Assembly (NCBI GenBank): GCA_021654395.1
Contig: AP024486.1
Span: forward strand, 420,001 to 452,000
From: Candidatus Saccharimonadota bacterium
Lineage (GTDB): Archaea > Micrarchaeota > Micrarchaeia > Micrarchaeales > Micrarchaeaceae
DNA: 32,000 nt
Reading direction: 5' to 3'
In this document: piece after piece, positions 6,826 to 32,000 of the stretch
How positions within the stretch are numbered: position 1 is the stretch's first letter
How the letters are laid out: each line of letters begins with the position of its first letter
Program-made: the position numbers and the translations under genes
The notes under the pieces: model-generated
The model's database searches: none
What the model was told of the DNA's origin: nothing
The model's input: only the letters and a program-made list of their open reading frames with translations

Positions 6826-6856
6826 CTATTAAATACTTTAACTATTAAATCTTTAA
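6826..6856 (+). promoter_or_regulatory. Tandemly duplicated TATA-like element immediately upstream of the ATPase operon
   Basis: ctattaaatactttaa (6826-6841) is followed directly by ctattaaatctttaa (6842-6856), and the two differ by a single-base indel. The ATG is at 6860. The distal copy lies at the spacing expected for a leaderless transcript. Confidence 0.45.
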
Positions 6857-6859
6857 TCG

Positions 6860-8374
6860 ATGACACTTATAAGATTACAGAGACTATTTACTGATGAGCT
6901 TTCAAAGAGGTCTATACTGAGCAGACCCCCAGAGCCACCACCAGATGCACTAATGAATGATCCTTTAAAGTCAGTATTTATAGGAATAACTGGAGTATTT
7001 AACGTTCCATTCTATTGGTCTAGTCTAAATATAACAAATCCACATATGGCGATAGTCGGAATAACTGGTGCTGGTAAGAGCTACTTCGTTAAATCCTTCT
7101 TAATAAGAGCAAGCTATGTTTGGAATACGAATGCTGTTATAATAGATTGGGCCGGAGAGTACAAGGCATGGGTTAAGCAGACAGGAGGCACAGTAGTTTC
7201 TTTGGGCAAAGGAGACTTCATAAATATAATGGATGTAGCTGGAATGAGACCTCTAGATAGAGTAAAGCAGATAATGAACTCATTCTCAATACTAACAGAT
7301 ATCGATATGTTTCCAGAGCAGAAGAGACTTACAGAAGAGGCTATAGAGCAGGCATATCTAAACAACGGCTTTGCATTAGCAGATATCGCACCAGAGGGAA
7401 AAGATGCACCAACTATAAAGGATGTTATACTTCTGCTTCAGGAGAAGCTTCAAGAAGGTACATATCAGTATCCTGCAGAGCTAGAGAATGCTATATATAG
7501 GCTAAGACAGTTTGCAAGGCCTGGAGAAGATTACTTCTCTAGGAAGAGTACTATAAATATAGGCAAGCTTGCGTTATCAGGATTAGTAGATATAGATCTA
7601 TCTGGAATGTCTGATGAAAGATTCAGAGCACTTGCAGCATTATTCATACTACAGACTCTAAAGGAGCTAATGAGATCGATGGGTTGGAGTGAGGTAAAGG
7701 GCCTAAAGACACTAGTTGTACTAGATGAGGCTTGGAAGGTAGCAGGAGATGAGAGAAGCGATGCTATAACAATAGTTAGAGAAGGTAGAAAGTATCAGTT
7801 CGGTCTTATAGTTGCATCTCAGAGCCCATTAGATGTAAACGAAGCAATCTTCTCTAATGTAGGTACTGTATTTATACTTGCCATAAAGTTTGAGAGATTT
7901 CTTAATTACTTGCAAGGATCGCTAAACTTCTCTAGCTATATAAGAAGCGAGATACTTAAGTTTGGTGTCGGTCAGGCAGCAGTCGTTATGTCATTTCAGA
8001 CATCATTGAAGTTTCCAGGTACATTTATAATAAAGAGAATATACGGAGAAGAGCCATTAAAGGTATATAGAATAGATATAACCTCTATACTGACTCAGAG
8101 TGAGATTGAAAGTAATATAATTCCAAGGACATTTGAGTTCGAGAAAGATTCGATAAACTCATTCCTTGTTGAGATAGGTTTGGCTAATGAGGTTATAGAT
8201 AAGATATTCAGCGATGCAGATACAAAGAATAGAGTTATAGATATAATGTCATTAGTATCAGAGCTTGCATCTAATCAGATTCCTTCAATAAGTATAGTAA
8301 ATCTTCTAAAGAATATCGGAATAGACGATAGTATAATAGCAAGAATACTGTCTAGAGTGAAAACAAATGAATGA
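6860..8374 (+). CDS. FtsK/HerA/VirB4-superfamily P-loop ATPase (DUF87/AAA_10-like), soluble, with a helical-repeat C-terminal tail
   Basis: Walker A is GITGAGKS (7058-7081) and Walker B is LVVLDEAW (7712-7735). The post-Walker-B block REGRKYQFGLIVASQSP and the IIDWAGEY block after Walker A are typical of HerA/VirB4-like ATPases. There is no TM segment and no long N-terminal domain. Confidence 0.8.
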   Translation: MTLIRLQRLFTDELSKRSILSRPPEPPPDALMNDPLKSVFIGITGVFNVPFYWSSLNITNPHMAIVGITGAGKSYFVKSFLIRASYVWNTNAVIIDWAGEYKAWVKQTGGTVVSLGKGDFINIMDVAGMRPLDRVKQIMNSFSILTDIDMFPEQKRLTEEAIEQAYLNNGFALADIAPEGKDAPTIKDVILLLQEKLQEGTYQYPAELENAIYRLRQFARPGEDYFSRKSTINIGKLALSGLVDIDLSGMSDERFRALAALFILQTLKELMRSMGWSEVKGLKTLVVLDEAWKVAGDERSDAITIVREGRKYQFGLIVASQSPLDVNEAIFSNVGTVFILAIKFERFLNYLQGSLNFSSYIRSEILKFGVGQAAVVMSFQTSLKFPGTFIIKRIYGEEPLKVYRIDITSILTQSEIESNIIPRTFEFEKDSINSFLVEIGLANEVIDKIFSDADTKNRVIDIMSLVSELASNQIPSISIVNLLKNIGIDDSIIARILSRVKTNE

Positions 8375-8687
8375 TAAAAGCTCTGCTTATGATAACTCAT
8401 TGGCAATAGAGAGAACTCAGTTAAGAAAGATCCTAAAATCTTTTAACCTCAGTGAAAAGGACATAATAAATATAACAACATATCTAGATAAAGCAAGAAG
8501 GCATATTAATATAATAAACTTCATAATACTTCTAGAGAGATATAATATCAAGAGAGATAGTATAAGAAGCATACTGAGAAGAATAGGCTTCTCAGATAAG
8601 CAGATAGATAAGGGCTTTGAGGCTCACGACGAGAAGCTTATAATGGATAAGTACGGTAGACTATTCGAGATAGATCTGGTAGATTAA
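8367..8687 (+). CDS. Small helical protein of unknown family, translationally coupled to the ATPase
   Basis: Its ATG overlaps the ATPase stop (ATGAATGA context, 8-nt overlap). It contains two copies of a motif also seen twice in the ATPase tail: ILKSFNLSEKDIINI and ILRRIGFSDKQIDKGF. Confidence 0.6.
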   Translation: MNDKSSAYDNSLAIERTQLRKILKSFNLSEKDIINITTYLDKARRHINIINFIILLERYNIKRDSIRSILRRIGFSDKQIDKGFEAHDEKLIMDKYGRLFEIDLVD

Positions 8688-8689
8688 TA

Positions 8690-9076
8690 ATGCACGAGAC
8701 TCGTTGTATAATATGCGGCAAGAGAAAGCCAGGATTAGAGATCGATACATCTACATTTATGTTTAAAAGCTTCAAAAAGCTAGTTTATACAAAAAGAAAG
8801 CTCTTGAGACAAGAGACAAAGAAGAGAGATTATACCTTAGTTGTATGTAAAGAATGCTTCCCAACATACTATAAGCTCTATAGGTCATATAGAAATAGAA
8901 AGATATTCTACATAGCTATACTTATACTTGGATTATTTGTTGCAGTATTGTCTGGTAGCTTAGCCGCTCTATTATATCTAATTATCATAGCGGCCCTTCT
9001 TTTTATTCTGCTGCTGCTTTCATTTATTCCTAAATTAAAGGTAAAGATTAATCATATAAATCTTAAAGAAAAATGA
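8690..9076 (+). CDS. Zinc-ribbon protein with a C-terminal two-helix membrane hairpin
   Basis: Two CxxC pairs are present (CIICGKR and CKECFP). They are followed by about 45 hydrophobic residues, IFYIAILILGLFVAVLSGSLAALLYLIIIAALLFILLLLSFIP. The start is 2 nt after the preceding stop. Confidence 0.6.
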   Translation: MHETRCIICGKRKPGLEIDTSTFMFKSFKKLVYTKRKLLRQETKKRDYTLVVCKECFPTYYKLYRSYRNRKIFYIAILILGLFVAVLSGSLAALLYLIIIAALLFILLLLSFIPKLKVKINHINLKEK

Positions 9077-9082
9077 TCTTTT

Positions 9083-9826
9083 ATGCAAGAGCAAAGTGGA
9101 GATAATCAGAATGTTGTAATACAACCAAAGATAGAGAGCTTTACCTTAGATATAATCAACGATTATGATATAAATCAGCTTTACTCTAGGCTATCCACTC
9201 ATGGATTATATAACGCAGCAATAAAGGATAATGCTTTATATCTATATAAGATAGATGGATACGATCTTCAGAAAAGGCCATTTAACTTCTCTATATTTAT
9301 AATAAATGGTAAGCAGCTACAATGCACATACACTATACAGCAGGATACTAGCCCTAAGATGAGAAAGCTAAATGTGATTAAGGATCTATTGCTTAGCTTA
9401 GAGCTTGTGGATGATCTATTAAAAGTAGATACAAAAAAGCTTTATGATCTCGTTGCTTCATCGATATCAGAGGTCTTATCTGGTATATCACAGCAGTACA
9501 GTGTTCTATACAATGCATATGATGCTTTACTCTCAGATTATAAGGAGGTAAAGAAGCAGCTCATAGATCTAAAGAAATCAAACGATCAGCTAGCTACAGA
9601 AGCAGATGAGCTTAGAAAGCAGAATGCTGAGCTATCAAAGCAGCTAAGCGACCTTAATAAGTACTCTGATGAGGCATTAATGGCTATGATTGAAGATTGG
9701 ATAAGAGCACATGATGGTAGCATAGATATAATGGAGTTCTCTAAGACTTATAAGCTAACGCCTTCTAGAGTAGAGCAGATACTGAATATAATGGTTGCAA
9801 AAGGGTATATAGCTCCAATATCATAA
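9083..9826 (+). CDS. Coiled-coil protein with a C-terminal winged-helix-like domain, unknown family
   Basis: The central heptad-like stretch is KEVKKQLIDLKKSNDQLATEADELRKQNAELSKQLSDLNK. The C-terminus, IDIMEFSKTYKLTPSRVEQILNIMVAKGYI, resembles a wHTH. The start is 6 nt after the preceding stop. Confidence 0.55.
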   Translation: MQEQSGDNQNVVIQPKIESFTLDIINDYDINQLYSRLSTHGLYNAAIKDNALYLYKIDGYDLQKRPFNFSIFIINGKQLQCTYTIQQDTSPKMRKLNVIKDLLLSLELVDDLLKVDTKKLYDLVASSISEVLSGISQQYSVLYNAYDALLSDYKEVKKQLIDLKKSNDQLATEADELRKQNAELSKQLSDLNKYSDEALMAMIEDWIRAHDGSIDIMEFSKTYKLTPSRVEQILNIMVAKGYIAPIS

Positions 9827-9866
9827 AAATGCTTAATTATATATCTTAGCATAATTAAAGATATTG

Positions 9867-10031
9867 ATGGACAATCTATTAAGGCTTAGAATCCTTAAGA
9901 AAGTAGAGTATGTAAGAGTATACAAGATCGTTAATAGTGTAAAAGGTAAGGAGAATCTAGTTACAAGATTATTCATGAAGATACTTGGAATAAAGGAGAA
10001 TGAGGAAGGTCCTAGTCTAAATGCAGAGTAA
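9867..10031 (+). CDS. Possible 54-aa small protein, absent from the ORF track
   Basis: My own translation gives MDNLLRLRILKKVEYVRVYKIVNSVKGKENLVTRLFMKILGIKENEEGPSLNAE, ending in TAA at 10029-10031. Codon style matches the neighbouring genes. A TATA-like ttatatat lies about 25-30 nt upstream, and the ORF ends 9 nt before the next gene. Confidence 0.4.
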   Translation: MDNLLRLRILKKVEYVRVYKIVNSVKGKENLVTRLFMKILGIKENEEGPSLNAE

Positions 10032-10040
10032 GTGTTGTAG

Positions 10041-12449
10041 ATGCCTGTGCCCCAAAAGAAGCGTAAAGGCTTTGGTAAGAAGATCCTAATACTTTTAATT
10101 ATAATAGTAATAGCCATAGTTGCTCTTATAGGCTTTGTAGAGATAGAGATAAGCTTATATAAGACAACAGCTATAAGAGTTGTGTCATATGGTAATCCTT
10201 ATCTTAGATTTAATATAAGCAACTTTACTGTTGTTAGTTATACGCCATATACTGCAGAGCAGATATTCAGTAGTACGAATATGACGCCAGCCTACTATTC
10301 TTATATAGATACAAAGAATATCTCTAACCTATTTATCTTTGCTACATTGTTACATTATATTCCGAGGCACATATATATTGTAAATACTTATACTGAATGC
10401 TATAGATGTATAGATCAGCAGCAGTTTATAAGCAATCTTAGTAGAGATCTATCTGCCTTAAATTACTCATCTAATATCACTGTAATAGCTCCATCAAATC
10501 TGACAGATACCTCATTGATTCAGAACAACTCAATAATAATTATAGGCAATGGGCTTCTGCCACAGGAGCTTGTTCAGAATGGCTTTTCAGCATTCAATCA
10601 ACTACTTAACAAGAATGTCAGCTTCATACTCTTAATAGGATCTCTTAATAACTATATTGGAGAGGGCTCTATAATAGCTCCTCTTTCTTCAGTTCCAAGC
10701 TATCTAGAGTTCTCATATACCAGTAATAAGAGTAGATCTTATAAGTCAGGTTATATTCCAAATGGAATATCTTTCTATAATGCTTCACTATATCTAAGCT
10801 CAGGCTACTTTAGCAACAATATAAGCTACTACCATGTAGATAACAATAGCATACTGCTTCTTGGCAACTATCCAGATCTCTATAATACATCATACCTGGC
10901 AGGGCTTATAGCTAGATCTATATACATACCTTACTGGGAGTCAAGCCTTGGCTATAATCAGTATAATATAACGATAGCCACAAAGAACTATACAAATAAA
11001 AGCTTAGATATATTGAATAGCAGCAATATAGGATTTAATAGATTATACAATCTTTCTAGCTTTACTGGAGACTTTGGGAAAGCTTATCTATATATAGCGT
11101 TAAGCGCAAAGGGATTCAATGTAAGCAAGAGGCTAAATGAATCATTCTTAGAGGAAGAGAGCTTTAATGTAAATGGATCTATATTGACTCCTAATCTATT
11201 AGTTCCTGGACGCACTCAGCAGTTTACATTCTTCTTAATAGATATAAATAACTCAAATGTAACAATAGAGCCACATATATCTTTATATAACAGATCTGGA
11301 GCTCTGATTGCATCTCAGGGGTTAGCTGCGCTATCTCTGCCGCAGAACTCTAGATTTATAGAGTATCTAACATATACGCTAAGGCCTGGTAGATATATAT
11401 TAGAGCTTCAGGGCTATTCAAATAACCTTATAGCTGCTACATACTTTGTAGTTCCAAATATAAATGTAACTTTCATAAATAGAACTGCTTCAAACGACTT
11501 CAACTTTTTAGTTAAGGCAGGAGACTTCCCTCTAACAGGTCTGCCATATAGCATAGTCTTTGATGGTATATACAGATATAATGGTACAATCGAGAAAGGC
11601 TTGGCATATATACCTTCAGTGCCCATCTCTAGTGGTACAAACTTTTCATTCAATATAATAGTTCCTGGATATGCAAACCAGACTTATATATATAGGCCAG
11701 TTATAGCATCATTCAAGATAAACTCTCAGTATATAATACTTGCAATAGTTGGTGTAATAGCCTTTATACTAGTTGTATTTGTGAGGGCTCCTAATAGAGA
11801 TATGTTCTATATAGATGTATCAGATCTTCCAAAGCCAGCTGTTACAAAGCTAGAGGTTAAGAAGTCAGAGATAGTCTCTCTATTTGACAAGATAAATCTA
11901 AGATATAAATGGAAGTATATGCCATTAACAAAAGAAGAGATAATGAATAACATACCAAACTATATAAGATATGGGGTACTACCAGTCAGCGTAACTTACA
12001 TGAACGTATCATTAATAATCTCAAGGCTTGAGAAAGAAGGCCTTGTTAAGTCTTATGATGGCTATTATATACCAGTAGAGTGGGAGCGTTTAAGCGGGCA
12101 TGATATAAGATATCTTGTAATATTTAGAAAGATAAGAGACTATCTGCTTTCAAAGGGATTCTATTATACAGATATCGACTCTAGCAAGATAGCAGATATA
12201 ATCACAAATATAAACGGAAAAAGAGTATACATCTTTATCTATTCGGAGACGTCAAAGTTCTATAAGCATATGCCATTATATACAGATGGAGATAATGTAT
12301 TAGCATTCTCGAATTACACAGAGCTTGTAGAGTTTGAAAGTAATCTATATAAGACAGTATCTGATAATGCTGCAATACTAAAAGGCTACATATCAAGCGG
12401 CATACTTAGGCTACTAGATAGTGATCATCCAGATGAGGTACTCTCTTGA
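10041..12449 (+). CDS. 802-aa two-pass membrane glycoprotein with a large sequon-rich ectodomain and a cytoplasmic wHTH-like tail, unknown family
   Basis: The N-terminal basic stretch plus TM is KKRKGFGKKILILLIIIVIAIVALIGF. The roughly 530-aa region that follows holds about 30 N-x-S/T sequons by eye. A second TM, YIILAIVGVIAFILVVFV, lies near nt 11730-11790. The C-terminal domain of about 215 aa contains VSLIISRLEKEGLVKSYDGYYIP. Confidence 0.6.
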   Translation: MPVPQKKRKGFGKKILILLIIIVIAIVALIGFVEIEISLYKTTAIRVVSYGNPYLRFNISNFTVVSYTPYTAEQIFSSTNMTPAYYSYIDTKNISNLFIFATLLHYIPRHIYIVNTYTECYRCIDQQQFISNLSRDLSALNYSSNITVIAPSNLTDTSLIQNNSIIIIGNGLLPQELVQNGFSAFNQLLNKNVSFILLIGSLNNYIGEGSIIAPLSSVPSYLEFSYTSNKSRSYKSGYIPNGISFYNASLYLSSGYFSNNISYYHVDNNSILLLGNYPDLYNTSYLAGLIARSIYIPYWESSLGYNQYNITIATKNYTNKSLDILNSSNIGFNRLYNLSSFTGDFGKAYLYIALSAKGFNVSKRLNESFLEEESFNVNGSILTPNLLVPGRTQQFTFFLIDINNSNVTIEPHISLYNRSGALIASQGLAALSLPQNSRFIEYLTYTLRPGRYILELQGYSNNLIAATYFVVPNINVTFINRTASNDFNFLVKAGDFPLTGLPYSIVFDGIYRYNGTIEKGLAYIPSVPISSGTNFSFNIIVPGYANQTYIYRPVIASFKINSQYIILAIVGVIAFILVVFVRAPNRDMFYIDVSDLPKPAVTKLEVKKSEIVSLFDKINLRYKWKYMPLTKEEIMNNIPNYIRYGVLPVSVTYMNVSLIISRLEKEGLVKSYDGYYIPVEWERLSGHDIRYLVIFRKIRDYLLSKGFYYTDIDSSKIADIITNINGKRVYIFIYSETSKFYKHMPLYTDGDNVLAFSNYTELVEFESNLYKTVSDNAAILKGYISSGILRLLDSDHPDEVLS

Positions 12450-14696: not shown

Positions 14697-14748
14697 GATT
14701 GTGTCATGATACAATCATGATACAATCATTATGCAATCATGTAACTTA
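14697..14748 (+). promoter_or_regulatory. Operator-like array combining a near-perfect 20-bp palindrome with 11-bp-periodic direct repeats
   Basis: GATTGTGTCATGATACAATC (14697-14716) is palindromic except for one position per arm. catgatacaat occurs at 14705-14715 and again at 14716-14726, followed by cattatgcaat (14727-14737) and catgtaac. The array lies just downstream of a TTTAAATAT box at about 14666-14674 and just upstream of the wHTH gene. Confidence 0.55.
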
Positions 14749-14760
14749 CATATAAGTGTG

Positions 14761-15318
14761 ATGTTAGTTATGCATAACATTAATGATGAAAGTATTAAAA
14801 AATTAATGGATGAGTATCTTAAGGCTAAAGAGAATGAAGCAAGCATGGGAAAGGTCAATGAAAATATAATGACCTTGCTTAAGTATCTTATAGACGAGAA
14901 TAGAAAGACAACTTTAATACTTAAACAGATGGCAGATAGAATAGATAAGTTAGAGAGCAGACTATCAAGCATAATGGATACAGCAGAGCAGGAGATCGAG
15001 GATGAGAGTGATGAAGAGCCCAGTGTAAGTAGCTATAAGCAAGATATAAGTAGAAATGAGGTATCAGATAATAGAAAGATAGTAACTCTTACAGAGCAGG
15101 ATAAAAAGATACTTGAACAGGTTCAGATGAGAGGAATGATATGCGCTGATCAGCTTCAGAAGATTATGAACTATAAAGGAAAGAATGCTGCATCAGCTAG
15201 ACTTAATAGATTATGTATGCTTGGATTATTAATAAAGCTTCAGATCGGACATAAGACATACTTTTCCTATGATCCTGGCAAGGCGACCAATTTAGTTATA
15301 GTATCACCACCAGATTAG
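14761..15318 (+). CDS. Coiled-coil plus acidic linker plus C-terminal MarR/TrmB-like wHTH transcription regulator
   Basis: The C-terminus, LTEQDKKILEQVQMRGMICADQLQKIMNYKGKNAASARLNRLCMLGLLIKL, fits a winged HTH. The ORF-track start at 14731 lies inside the repeat array, so I chose the in-frame ATG at 14761, with 14770 also possible. Confidence 0.6.
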   Translation: MLVMHNINDESIKKLMDEYLKAKENEASMGKVNENIMTLLKYLIDENRKTTLILKQMADRIDKLESRLSSIMDTAEQEIEDESDEEPSVSSYKQDISRNEVSDNRKIVTLTEQDKKILEQVQMRGMICADQLQKIMNYKGKNAASARLNRLCMLGLLIKLQIGHKTYFSYDPGKATNLVIVSPPD

Positions 15319-15365: not shown

Positions 15366-16547
15366 ATGTTAAAAGATAATTTCTATAATATGAATAAAAA
15401 GCAGCCTATAGATGTTTCAAGTATAGCAAAGATAAATCTAATAATCAATATTATTACTCTGATACTAGTCATATATATAATGCTGCATCTTAGCTCAGTA
15501 AGTACATCTGTTGGCAATTCAGCAGGTCAATCAAATAGCTCAAGTAAGAATCTCACGGCCTTATTAGCAGAAGCGATATATGGAAACACAAATATAACCG
15601 TTAGTAGATTTAATAATACGCCAACTGTAATATATCTTGCAAAGCCAAATAATGTCAATCTTCAAAGCCTATATCAAAGATATCATACATTTACTCGTAA
15701 TTTAGTTAATGCTGATCAGCCATTCAATAGCACTGCTTTATCTATAATAAATAATGCAAGTAATGAGCTGTTTAATAAGGCTGGGTATTTATTGCTGAAT
15801 AATTCAAGTATAGCTAGTAGAGTTATAGGTACAAGTGCTCAGCCAGTTCCAATGCTAATAGTAAATAATAAACCTTCTGTTATATACTTTGGATCGACTA
15901 CATGTATATTCTGCGGAGAGAACAGATGGGCTATGGCATTAGCTCTATCAAGATTTGGATATTTTAAGGAGCTATTTATAGGATATAGCTCATTCGGCGA
16001 TGGTGATGAGGCTACTATATACTGGGCAGATGATCCGTTACTTACGCCATCTGATGTATTGGGCAACTACTACGTAAGTAAATATATAAACTTTATATCT
16101 ATCGAGGATACAAATAATATAACACAGGGCTTTAATTTGAATCCATTAAATGAGATTCAAGCCTCTATAAACTCTACAAATAATCCGGTATATATGGAAG
16201 CTATAAAGTATGTTACTGAAGGAGTATCTTTATCTAGTAAGCAACCAGTTTTTAGCGGCACTCCTTTAACAGTATGGGGTAAGTATGCATTTAGCGGTGC
16301 TGATGCCGTAGATTTTGGGCTTAATAACTCAGAGGCTGTAGTAAATAACAGCGCAGTCGTTGGATTAACAGAGATGACACATGGCGAAGTACTACAGCAG
16401 ATTGCCAATCCTACAACTACATTCGGATGGACAGAGTACGCTGCAGCTGATGTTTATATAGCAGCGTTATGCCTATCAGTAAATAACACATATCCTGCAT
16501 GTAATAAAATTCAATCTATAAAGCTTATAGAGCAAAGATACTTTTAA
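15366..16547 (+). CDS. DUF929-like membrane-anchored thioredoxin-fold protein
   Basis: An N-terminal TM anchor and an S/N-rich linker are followed by PSVIYFGSTTCIFCGENRWAMALALSRFGYF. This matches the DUF929 pattern as I recall it (CxxC followed by RWA..AL.RFG). The start may instead be the Met at 15390 (MNKKQP), which lies about 29 nt downstream of a TTTATTAATA box. Confidence 0.65.
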   Translation: MLKDNFYNMNKKQPIDVSSIAKINLIINIITLILVIYIMLHLSSVSTSVGNSAGQSNSSSKNLTALLAEAIYGNTNITVSRFNNTPTVIYLAKPNNVNLQSLYQRYHTFTRNLVNADQPFNSTALSIINNASNELFNKAGYLLLNNSSIASRVIGTSAQPVPMLIVNNKPSVIYFGSTTCIFCGENRWAMALALSRFGYFKELFIGYSSFGDGDEATIYWADDPLLTPSDVLGNYYVSKYINFISIEDTNNITQGFNLNPLNEIQASINSTNNPVYMEAIKYVTEGVSLSSKQPVFSGTPLTVWGKYAFSGADAVDFGLNNSEAVVNNSAVVGLTEMTHGEVLQQIANPTTTFGWTEYAAADVYIAALCLSVNNTYPACNKIQSIKLIEQRYF

Positions 16548-30232: not shown

Positions 30233-30319
30233 AATTCTCTCCTTATTACTTATATAGAAAGTAGATTAGAGTTAAAAAGTTATTAAAAGCTTTTAGATAA
30301 TAAATAATATTTGATCGTA

Positions 30320-31162
30320 ATGGCTGAGATGGTTCAGAAAGGCTCTTTAATATTCTTTATGGTATTCTGGGCTGTATCTATAGGCTTTTTAGTACTATCA
30401 ATATCAATACCTAAGGGCCAGATATATACTATACCTCTAGAGCTTATAGCTGTGATTATAGCAATTCTATTTGCTATACTTGCCTATGGTACTAGATTTC
30501 ACTCACCTATAATAATAGAGTTTCTAAATCAGAGAAAGAAGCTGATAGTACTAAATAATGATTATCCATACTACATATATCCATCTAATGATGCTATAGT
30601 TAGAAAGCTATCATCTGAGTATGTCGCAACTGTTATAATAAAGCTTCCTATGTATAGATCAGCTACAGAGATGAGTGAAGAAGAGAGATACACATTTGCA
30701 AAGAATATAGGTAGAGCATTAACACTATCAGATAAGCCAGTAAGATTCGCATCACAGCTATACTACATGAATAACGAGTCTTATATATCAGTTATTAGAG
30801 AGCAGTTGAATAAAGCAGAGACTGAGCTGCTTAGTCTGCAGCAGCAGAATGTGCCGCAAGAGAAGATAGAGAAGGCTAAGGGTCAATTGGCGATGTGGAG
30901 AAATATACTATCTGCAGTTTCATCATCTAACGCTATGCAGCTAGACAGCGTCGTCTATGTCTCTGCTAAGGGTGTTAGAGACTACGAGGCAGTAGCTTAT
31001 GCACAGCAGAGAGCGAGAGAGATTATATCTGGAATTGGTGCTATATTTGGCGTTATACCAACAATAGTTACAGGTCAAGACATAATAAAGTATATAGAGC
31101 CAGAAGGTGTAATTACAGAAGCTATAGTAACAGAGAAGATTAAGAAAGAGATAAGTGATTAA
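30320..31162 (+). CDS. Membrane-anchored protein of unknown family, paralogue of the next gene
   Basis: Two N-terminal TM helices are followed by a soluble domain: YVATVIIKLPMYRSATEMSEEERYTF ... PVRFASQLYYMNNESYISVIREQLNKAETEL ... VVYVSAKGVRDYEAVAYAQQRAREIISG. The ORF-track start is TTG at 30311, and the ATG at 30320 is preferred. Confidence 0.55.
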   Translation: MAEMVQKGSLIFFMVFWAVSIGFLVLSISIPKGQIYTIPLELIAVIIAILFAILAYGTRFHSPIIIEFLNQRKKLIVLNNDYPYYIYPSNDAIVRKLSSEYVATVIIKLPMYRSATEMSEEERYTFAKNIGRALTLSDKPVRFASQLYYMNNESYISVIREQLNKAETELLSLQQQNVPQEKIEKAKGQLAMWRNILSAVSSSNAMQLDSVVYVSAKGVRDYEAVAYAQQRAREIISGIGAIFGVIPTIVTGQDIIKYIEPEGVITEAIVTEKIKKEISD

Positions 31163-31164
31163 TT

Positions 31165-32000
31165 ATGGTAGATCAGGAAACAGTTATATTTACTCTATTT
31201 GCAGCAGTTCCTATAATAGTTATAATGGCCTTATCCGGAGCATATGGAAAGTATGTTAATATATTAGTTATAATAATAGCTCTTATTGGATTGGCGCTGC
31301 TGCTAGCTTTAGCGTTTGCAGACTTCTTAATAGTTCCGTACTTTATGAATCTCTTTGGACTTAAGGTACAGCCAGCTAAAGACTTTACAACGAATAGGCA
31401 GCAGAATGCAATAATTAAGCAGAGTAATGGGATATACTATACTATCGGATATCTTACCGCGAATCTATACTCTTATACATTTAAGCAAGAGCTTAGCGAA
31501 GAGGATACTTATCAAAAGATAATTAATAGTCCGTTGATATGGGAGAATATAATCTCTAGCGTAAAGGTCCCATTCAGATACAACATAGTCTCATTTGCAG
31601 AGAATGTGCAGAAAGTAAGAGAGGCGTTAGAGGCACAGAGAGGCCTTAAAGAGTCTCAGCTTACAAAGCTTATGCAGGCATCTAAGACAGAGTTTAGCTC
31701 GGCAGTAGCAGATCTTCAGAGAGCTATAAATATCATACAGAGAAAGATAGACAGAATATCTGCTGGAGAGAAGCCTGTAAGAACAATAATGTATATAGAG
31801 GTATTCGGAGCTGGAGTAAATGAGAAGGCAGCATTAGACGATCTAGAGTATAACATAGATCAAGTGAGGTCTGCCTTTGCATCATTTGATATAGAGATAA
31901 ATAGAGTAGCTGGAAGAGAGCTTTTTGTACTATTTGAGTTTGGCTTCTTCCTACCATCTAGCTATTCAGATATAGAGCAGCTATTCAGCAAGGAGGAGTA
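31165..32000 (+). CDS. Membrane-anchored paralogue of 30320-31162, open to the window end and absent from the ORF track
   Basis: My own translation gives MVDQETVIFTLFAAVPIIVIMALSGAYGKYVNILVIIIALIGLALLLALAF ... IYYTIGYLTANLYSYTFKQELSEEDTYQ ... VPFRYNIVSFAENVQKVREALEAQRG ... TIMYIEVFGAGVNEKAALDDLEYNIDQVRSAF. There is no stop before base 32000. It starts 3 nt after the preceding stop. Confidence 0.55.
   Translation, partial: MVDQETVIFTLFAAVPIIVIMALSGAYGKYVNILVIIIALIGLALLLALAFADFLIVPYFMNLFGLKVQPAKDFTTNRQQNAIIKQSNGIYYTIGYLTANLYSYTFKQELSEEDTYQKIINSPLIWENIISSVKVPFRYNIVSFAENVQKVREALEAQRGLKESQLTKLMQASKTEFSSAVADLQRAINIIQRKIDRISAGEKPVRTIMYIEVFGAGVNEKAALDDLEYNIDQVRSAFASFDIEINRVAGRELFVLFEFGFFLPSSYSDIEQLFSKEE

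Follow-up and report, generated by a model that had tools for sequence, protein, structure and literature searches.

A six-gene cluster in a Micrarchaeota genome evidently works like, and is related to, the class of machines that comprises type IV secretion systems (T4SS) and the archaeal Ced system. The cluster lies in a 32,000-nucleotide stretch of contig AP024486.1 (assembly GCA_021654395.1, positions 420,001 to 452,000 of the forward strand), and this whole stretch is called the window. The six genes, A to F, occupy window positions 6860–12449, and two further genes of the window, Z' and Z, encode the missing membrane part of the motor. The set is probably a domesticated, relaxase-less T4SS/Ced-like apparatus of Micrarchaeota. 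It would be a descendant or a sister of VirB4/VirB6 machines with a split motor, the six genes would form its motor-proximal half, and its cargo would be nucleic acid. The initial annotation of this DNA had proposed a membrane translocation machine, and this proposal is supported by the split VirB4/CedB-type motor, by the membrane anchors, and by polytopic membrane protein genes upstream of the motor in relatives. The A and F proteins have identical counterparts in 'Candidatus Micrarchaeota archaeon' ARM-1, in which F is ARM1_0456.

Gene A (6860–8374, + strand) encodes a soluble 504-residue ATPase of the FtsK/HerA/VirB4 superfamily, as had been annotated. Its DUF87/HerA-central domain contains Walker A, Walker B, and a conserved arginine motif. 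The sequences GITGAGKS, VVLDEAW, and REGRKYQFG show no variation among 13 homologues, and Pfam DUF87 (the HerA central domain) is matched at 61.8 bits against a cut-off of 23.2. The protein consists of a P-loop domain and a helical C-terminal domain (residues ~420–500). Only ~45 residues precede the ATPase core and Walker A lies near residue 70, which bears out the description of A as lacking a transmembrane segment and a long N-terminal domain. The best NCBIfam matches are CedD (73 bits, cut-off 600), VirB4_plasma (55 bits, cut-off 590), and CedB (48 bits, cut-off 700), and VirB4_CagE is matched at 30 bits (cut-off 643). A search of PDB sequences with A returned HerA proteins and the VirB4 entry 4ag5. 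Longer A orthologues also occur: P0124 has 1026 residues, P0125 has 1196 residues, and the A genes at loci L007, L038, L062, and L081 are either longer or match with ~250 extra nucleotides. These long forms may be inteins, insertions, or fusions with a ~740-residue N-terminal region.

The public record of A is titled 'DNA double-strand break repair helicase HerA', and this name is very likely a misannotation. A shares its P-loop superfamily with the ATPase of HerA–NurA, but it has no HAS-barrel N-domain, it scores 39–43 bits with NCBIfam HerA models whose cut-offs are 800–970, and its neighbors are glycosyltransferase and Top6B genes. NurA, Mre11, and Rad50 are not among these neighbors, in agreement with the initial annotation. 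A role as a double-strand break repair helicase was rejected on these grounds. An FtsK/SpoIIIE-type translocase was also rejected, because the Pfam FtsK_SpoIIIE score of 16.2 bits is under the cut-off (24) and only the P-loop is covered.

Relatives of A were collected from a scan of one genome per species, and 442 genomes encode one. The counts below use the best 80 loci, at which the ATPases are 64–72% identical to A. These loci are all from Micrarchaeota except for a few evidently mis-binned records, and the own-genome locus (L001) brings the loci counted to 81. Homologues within the loci were detected by tblastn or by profile hidden Markov models (HMMs), and the upper HMM counts (for example, 83 for B) take in a few loci from more distant lineages.

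The N-terminal part of the motor is encoded separately. An A relative with 41% identity (L082) has a D homologue on its 3′ side and a 257-residue protein with two N-terminal transmembrane helices on its 5′ side. A search with this 257-residue protein found a gene for ~277 residues directly 5′ of the ATPase gene in 79 of the 81 loci. A tandem gene pair, Z'–Z, is located directly 5′ of the ATPase gene in 77–79 of the 81 loci. In other loci, the gene next to that of the ATPase is a Z orthologue (matches at 1e-60 to 1e-81), and the Z' orthologue comes just before it, two genes 5′ of the ATPase gene. In ARM-1, the pair is displaced by 22 kb from the ATPase gene and lies beside a PAPS-reductase-like gene on the opposite strand. 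Z' (window 30311–31162, + strand; the public gene call starts at 30320) encodes 280–283 residues with two N-terminal transmembrane helices followed by a soluble domain. Z (31165–32000, + strand) reaches the window end, and its stop codon ends one base past it. The Z frame was read from the sequence, and full-length Z was taken from a contig of the same genome (L089).

Profile comparisons relate Z' and Z to the N-terminal domains of CedB and VirB4. The two families are paralogues, with an hhalign probability of 97.7%. The reference for the next comparison was the N-terminal 300 residues of full-length CedB-like ATPases, which have 690–910 residues and match the CedB model over almost their whole length at 94–144 bits. 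One of these long ATPases adjoins a CedA-like gene (E = 1.4e-25) and a gene for a 60-residue protein with two transmembrane segments. Z' aligned with the CedB-like N-termini at a probability of 95.1% (E = 3.2e-8) and Z at 82% (E = 1e-5), compared to <1% for the control families B, C, and D. The Z orthologue of 'Ca. Micrarchaeum' A_DKE (L033) is co-linear with the N terminus of NCBIfam VirB4_plasma, with residues 6–260 matching model positions 24–276 of 894 (E = 2.2e-4). The Z' profile HMM matched residues 4–247 of a fused CedB-like protein at L086 (E = 1.2e-5). From these data and the CedB-like gene context, we interpret Z'/Z plus A as a split VirB4/CedB-type motor.

The VirB4-type N-domain and transmembrane hairpin are thus present in trans, in Z' and Z, and not in the A polypeptide. 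The stripped-down appearance of A arises from gene fission and from rearrangement in this genome. The claim that the ATPase stands without the usual partners of its superfamily is therefore not supported, because the membrane-spanning N-terminal VirB4/CedB part exists as separate genes that normally lie directly 5′. The related view that the set cannot be equated with Ced or a T4SS is also revised by the N-domain homology of Z'/Z and by weak CedA matches of the upstream polytopic genes. With Z' and Z elsewhere in the same window, the unit is larger than six genes. On the 3′ side of Z'–Z in ARM-1, past the window end (L089 12340–15039), there are an opposite-strand methyltransferase gene, a gene for a 446-residue sequon-rich secreted protein, and a ParA/MinD-family ATPase gene. 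Ted loci have been reported to include a VirC1/ParA-like gene.

The C-terminal domain of the ATPase is also encoded twice. Gene B (8367–8687, + strand) specifies a helical protein of 106 residues that matches the C-terminal tail of A by BLASTP (E = 1e-6). The B profile HMM matched residues ~420–500 of many ATPases at 1e-13 to 1e-22, and hhalign aligned B with A at a probability of 96.9% (E = 1.3e-10). Judged by sequence, B is a free-standing paralogous copy of the ATPase C-terminal domain. The motor is a new VirB4-type build in which the N-domain is duplicated and separately encoded and the C-terminal domain also occurs as a free protein, and it bears on how CedB/CedD and VirB4 assemblies evolved.

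The six genes form a conserved unit. Their coordinates and shared direction were correctly given in the initial annotation, as were their junctions, which are an 8-nt overlap followed by gaps of 2, 6, 40, and 9 nt. The product features it described are also present. Gene order and strand of A–F are kept among the best 80 loci. A B homologue was detected in 78–83 loci, C in 80, D in 70–72, and F in 66. Where D and F occur together (66 loci), the profile HMM of E located this gene between them 64 times. Median identities to the window proteins are 66% for A, 37% for B, 34% for C, 40% for D, 43% for E, and 31% for F. The downstream gene Top6B is convergent to the cluster, an arrangement kept in 59 loci, and its median identity (54.5%) is below that of the motor protein A. 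The 3′ ends of Top6B (− strand) and F (+ strand) share 25 nt at window 12425–12449. The adjacency of these genes is therefore not peculiar to this genome, and the apparatus is fixed in the chromosome and found across Micrarchaeota. The genes constitute one conserved functional set that combines a superfamily motor, membrane anchors, winged-helix modules, and a surface-exposed glycoprotein, as had been suggested.

The conservation pattern also bears on the idea that the cluster is an integrated mobile element, such as the remnant of a conjugative plasmid or of an integrative and conjugative element, or a HerA-based anti-virus defence module. The PADLOC models for the HerA, DndH, and mad8 ATPases match A (best 8.5e-19), and VirB4-like ATPases are carried by archaeal conjugative elements (PMC12102498). 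However, the PADLOC matches cover the generic P-loop domain only, and D is the only partner with a match, a weak coiled-coil one to LmuB (E = 0.0019). Vertical conservation in hundreds of species, the fixed site by Top6B, and above all the phylum-wide synteny strongly oppose both forms of the idea. G+C content is uniform along the window (0.32–0.39), and library scans found no integrase, relaxase, nuclease, or Sir2/NurA-type effector nearby. The same kind of scan identified no relaxase or VirD4-type coupling protein among the cluster products or their neighbors. The uniform composition, the fixed site, and the lack of an integrase or relaxase match argue that the set is not a mobile element, and we regard a mobile or defensive origin as very improbable. 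The set is neither HerA–NurA nor FtsK, and it represents no type IV pilus system and no defence module that is known. Apart from the weak LmuB match, PADLOC yields generic HerA/DndH ATPase matches and no known effector. The MoxR/vWA 'novel secretion system' (Makarova et al., PMC5898192) was considered and set aside, since it uses a different ATPase class and is not related.

The chromosomal T4SS/Ced-like apparatus favored here has five partners for the ATPase in the cluster. Searches of B–F against Pfam, NCBIfam, PHROGs, and PADLOC gave coiled-coil noise, weak zinc-finger or helix-turn-helix matches, and nothing else. With Foldseek added to these searches, the partners were not placed in characterized families with a known joint function. 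Gene C (8690–9076, + strand) encodes a zinc ribbon followed by a transmembrane hairpin in 128 residues. The assignment is substantiated by the conserved cysteines C6, C9, C53, and C56 (CxxC...CxxC) and by a hydrophobic stretch at residues 69–121. C had no significant match in Pfam or NCBIfam. Gene E (9867–10031, + strand) encodes a basic protein of 54 residues with the conserved core RVYxIV...TRLFMK, and its retention alongside D and F establishes this once tentative reading frame as a real conserved gene. The list of open reading frames starts E at a TTG codon (9864), and the public gene call uses an ATG. Relatives of C and E were not detected outside the cluster.

Gene D (9083–9826, + strand) encodes an adaptor-like protein of 247 residues. 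Its AlphaFold2 model has a mean predicted local distance difference test (pLDDT) score of 84.9 and shows an alpha/beta N-domain (16–108), a long helix or coiled coil (117–191), and a three-helix winged-helix-like module (196–240). This model agrees with the earlier description of a coiled-coil protein ending in a winged helix. Foldseek found nothing in the PDB at E ≤ 1e-3. The top match of the N-domain is a KA1 domain (E = 0.0099, TMt 0.51), and the C terminus can be overlaid on 2xvc, the winged helix of CdvB (TMt 0.77, 33% identity over 48 residues). On the predicted structure, these likenesses are at the level of fold only. D comes after the ATPase even in distant lineages, with matches of ~1e-29 at L082 and L092 and a weak match at L090.

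An alternative is a chromosome-segregation or division machine, in which A would be an FtsK-like DNA pump held at the membrane by Z/Z' and C, D a division-site adaptor, and F a trans-envelope anchor. The NCBI pipeline labels D orthologues 'cell division protein ZapB', the D C terminus superposes on CdvB and has a weak 2xvc profile match (E = 0.36), and the N-domain resembles KA1/ZipA-type folds weakly. The 66% conservation of A, above that of Top6B, in the genomes of 442 species is as expected for a housekeeping function. However, none of the D fold matches is significant, and the ZapB label arises from coiled-coil composition only and is very likely a misannotation. FtsK_SpoIIIE stays under its cut-off with A, and the N-domain homology of Z and Z' points to VirB4/CedB. 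A fast-evolving glycosylated Ig-like ectodomain on F and PA14 surface proteins in relatives also suit cell–cell contact better than division. A division role is accordingly improbable.

Gene F (10041–12449, + strand) encodes an 802-residue two-pass membrane glycoprotein. It begins with an N-terminal signal anchor, which is followed by an ectodomain of ~520 residues, a second transmembrane segment, and a cytoplasmic domain (~608–800). The hydrophobic segments lie near residues 8–42 and 554–586, and there are 31 NxS/T sequons in the ectodomain compared to 2 in the cytoplasmic part. These features and a winged helix in the model uphold the description of F as a two-pass glycoprotein with a cytoplasmic winged helix-turn-helix-like domain. 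The AlphaFold2 model is confident only at residues 608–800 (pLDDT 80–92), where a well-conserved winged helix plus alpha/beta module is found. The ectodomain evolves fast and its model is unreliable. Foldseek searches of the PDB and BFVD returned only generic Ig/FN3/MG tandem-domain matches for this low-confidence ectodomain model, and they gave no family assignment for the cytoplasmic domain. No Pfam family was matched by more than one of 52 F members. A word-indexed homologue search found 2 F relatives, and a concatenated profile of D plus the F C terminus gave 5 matches, all of them F proteins, so the F alignment is shallow.

Two specific identities for F were discarded. A PD-(D/E)xK nuclease at the C terminus was suggested by an alpha-beta-beta-beta-alpha-alpha-beta order and an invariant D719. 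The idea was dropped because a conserved (D/E)xK motif is missing and because this genome does not retain the helix-1 glutamate. An S-layer role was dismissed because the S-layer protein of A_DKE is Micr_00292.

The presence of F beside the motor is also compatible with a machine that assembles or secretes surface structures, in which the motor powers insertion or extrusion of pilus-like or adhesive protein subunits, including F, and not of nucleic acid. Bacterial VirB4 provides the energy for assembly of the T4SS and for biogenesis of its pilus (PMC11823120; PMC12102498). Beside the motor gene, F and its counterparts encode large surface proteins, and small proteins with two or three transmembrane segments accompany the motor at L086 and L090. 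This alternative is unlikely. In the Micrarchaeota cluster, Pfam and NCBIfam revealed no pilin-like family, and the cytoplasmic zinc ribbon of C speaks against extrusion. Having both a cytoplasmic domain and a signal anchor of its own, F looks like a resident membrane protein. The three winged-helix-type modules and the zinc ribbon fit more easily with roles in nucleic-acid binding or complex assembly.

A candidate channel for the T4SS/Ced-like apparatus is encoded 5′ of Z' in most relatives. Five co-directional and tightly packed or overlapping polytopic membrane protein genes, Y1–Y5, occupy this position in 50 of the 58 loci with a full 8-kb upstream flank. In 'Ca. Micrarchaeum sp.' A_DKE, they are located at L033 168–6254. 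Y2–Y5 are paralogues with mutual hhalign probabilities of 98–99%, and they share an LRxxPxTRxxGG-type motif and Ser/Thr-rich loops. The Y proteins were not assigned to any Pfam family. Ced_CedA, the model of a VirB6-like channel for DNA import, is the only curated family that they matched recurrently, with 4 of 98 members and a best E of 2.6e-7. The Y genes occupy the position that CedA has at L086, and mainly this position is suggestive of a CedA/VirB6-like function. The core order of polytopic protein, Z, ATPase, and D is retained in more distant lineages. At L090, the order is Y, Z, A, a D-like gene, genes for small transmembrane proteins, and a gene for a 735-residue protein. At L084, a 1004-residue PA14 surface protein gene stands between Y and A, and the A–D adjacency is kept at L082 and L092.

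These data suggest a model for the complex. Z' and Z would each supply a transmembrane hairpin and a VirB4-like N-terminal domain, and A would supply the hexameric P-loop ATPase and the helical C-terminal domain of which B is a free copy. Membrane rings of Z/Z' would dock the A hexamer beneath a channel that Y1–Y5 could form in most Micrarchaeota, where they are present. C may be a second membrane anchor through its zinc ribbon and transmembrane hairpin. D is predicted to dimerize through its coiled coil and to link the motor to the F cytoplasmic domain or to nucleic acid. The fast-evolving and heavily N-glycosylated Ig-like ectodomain of F would be exposed on the cell surface and could touch the host cell. 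At this contact site, ATP hydrolysis by A would then power the passage of a macromolecule through the membrane of the symbiont, and the analogy to DNA import by Ced makes nucleic acid the most likely cargo.

The closest precedents are Ced and Ted. The functional definition of Ced is the DNA-damage-inducible import of chromosomal DNA between cells, and we know of no UV or DNA-damage link for the Micrarchaeota set. Ced DNA import is the archaeal precedent for such a transfer (PMC11868833, PMC11823120, PMC9905601). The Micrarchaeota set resembles Ced of Sulfolobales (CedA, CedA1/A2, CedB, and CedD) and Ted of Thermoproteales in being chromosomal and without a relaxase. It also shares with them a membrane-associated HerA/VirB4-clade ATPase with a VirB4-type N-domain and, in most relatives, polytopic membrane proteins. 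Among curated models, A matches CedD, CedB, and VirB4 best, and Z/Z' align with CedB-like N-domains. CedB and CedD are reported to cover different parts of the VirB4 N-domain, and the Z', Z paralogue pair echoes this split coverage (PMC11868833). There are clear differences. A single gene encodes the motor in Ced and Ted, compared to three or four in the Micrarchaeota set, which has one ATPase and not two. The scores lie far under the cut-offs. A CedA1/VirB2-type pilin was not found in the set, and Ced and Ted lack counterparts of B, C, D, E, and F. The Micrarchaeota bearer is a DPANN ectosymbiont and not a free-living crenarchaeon.

The comparison with bacterial T4SS gives a similar result. 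As in VirB4/VirB6 systems, a transmembrane hairpin and an N-domain precede a hexameric P-loop motor, and a candidate polytopic channel protein is associated in most relatives. Bacterial VirB3 is a small two-transmembrane protein that is either separate or fused. In contrast, the Micrarchaeota motor is divided at the boundary of N-domain and ATPase domain, with two copies of the N-domain gene. Equivalents of VirB8, VirB1, VirD4, or a pilin were not found in the set, and the similarity to bacterial VirB4 is marginal (VirB4_plasma at 55 bits for A and E = 2.2e-4 for Z). SPEARE proteins, giant surface proteins of nanohaloarchaea (another DPANN lineage), combine a large Ig-like ectodomain and a transmembrane segment with a coiled coil and a VirB4/TraG-like ATPase on the cytoplasmic side, and their genes are followed by a second VirB4-type gene (PMC10266531). 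Going by the architecture described in that paper, their parts list equals F plus A plus D plus Z. These parts are fused in one giant polypeptide in Nanohaloarchaeota and are separate genes in Micrarchaeota.

Several results weigh against kinship with T4SS and Ced. No member of the set reaches the curated cut-off for HerA, CedB, CedD, VirB4, or CedA, and A is below every VirB4, CedB, and CedD cut-off in NCBIfam. With the ATPase domain alone, HerA and VirB4 structures score about equally, and the Z profile found no VirB4 among PDB sequences. The hhalign comparison of the Y families with two CedA-like sequences was negative, and Y genes are absent from the window and from ~50 kb of ARM-1 around both sites. 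No VirB2/CedA1-type pilin and no second ATPase of the VirD4/CedD type were identified in the cluster. C, E, and the other small proteins had no pilin or CedA1 match in Pfam or NCBIfam, where the Pfam copy scanned does not include the newest CedA1 model. The cargo and the direction of transport are proposed by analogy. With no curated cut-off reached and no pilin, relaxase, or second ATPase, the set is not to be filed as a member of Ced or of the T4SS.

Patescibacteria, which are ultra-small episymbionts, carry a chromosomal VirB4 system that is near-universal and mostly lacks a relaxase (PMC12102498). The Micrarchaeota set and its Y–Z–A–D relatives in small-genome archaea could be the archaeal counterpart of this system and take up host nucleic acids or other cytoplasmic macromolecules at the contact site, a tentative extension that we consider possible, if on the unlikely side. 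The machine would then be minimal and derived from conjugation, with B, C, D, E, and F as new adaptors of the split VirB4 motor. If true, it would provide the physical basis for the host dependence of DPANN archaea. The set bears on how hosts supply these archaea with nucleotides, lipids, and other building blocks. It offers concrete candidates, being a gene set of hundreds of Micrarchaeota species with a motor more conserved than Top6B, kinship to DNA-transfer machines, and a fast-evolving surface protein. Testable systems are carried in co-cultures of 'Ca. Micrarchaeum harzensis' A_DKE, 'Ca. Mancarchaeum acidiphilum', and strain ARM-1. The analysis also corrects the public annotations of A ('HerA') and D ('ZapB'). 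To our knowledge, no transfer apparatus has been defined for Micrarchaeota. A search of the full-text literature, whose coverage is incomplete so that an earlier description is possible, found neither this Micrarchaeota cluster nor a split VirB4 described for DPANN archaea.

The set behaves as two sub-modules, as indicated by two observations. D and F are separated from A–B–C at three loci (L004, L036, and L040), where E was undetected. A TATA-like element, TTATATAT, lies at window 9837–9845 in the 40-nt gap between D and E, ~25 nt 5′ of the E start codon. From its sequence and position, this element is a possible internal promoter for E–F. A scan for sigma-70 promoters and terminators gave counts equal to those of shuffled sequence, and this bacterial-type model is uninformative for an archaeon.

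Two other genes were noted past Top6B and a KH-domain gene, just 5′ of secY. The first (window 14731–15318, + strand) encodes a 195-residue protein whose N-terminal half is helical and whose acidic linker leads to a C terminus that looks like a winged helix by eye, and it has no Pfam hit on record. The second (15366–16547, + strand) encodes a DUF929 membrane or secreted protein.

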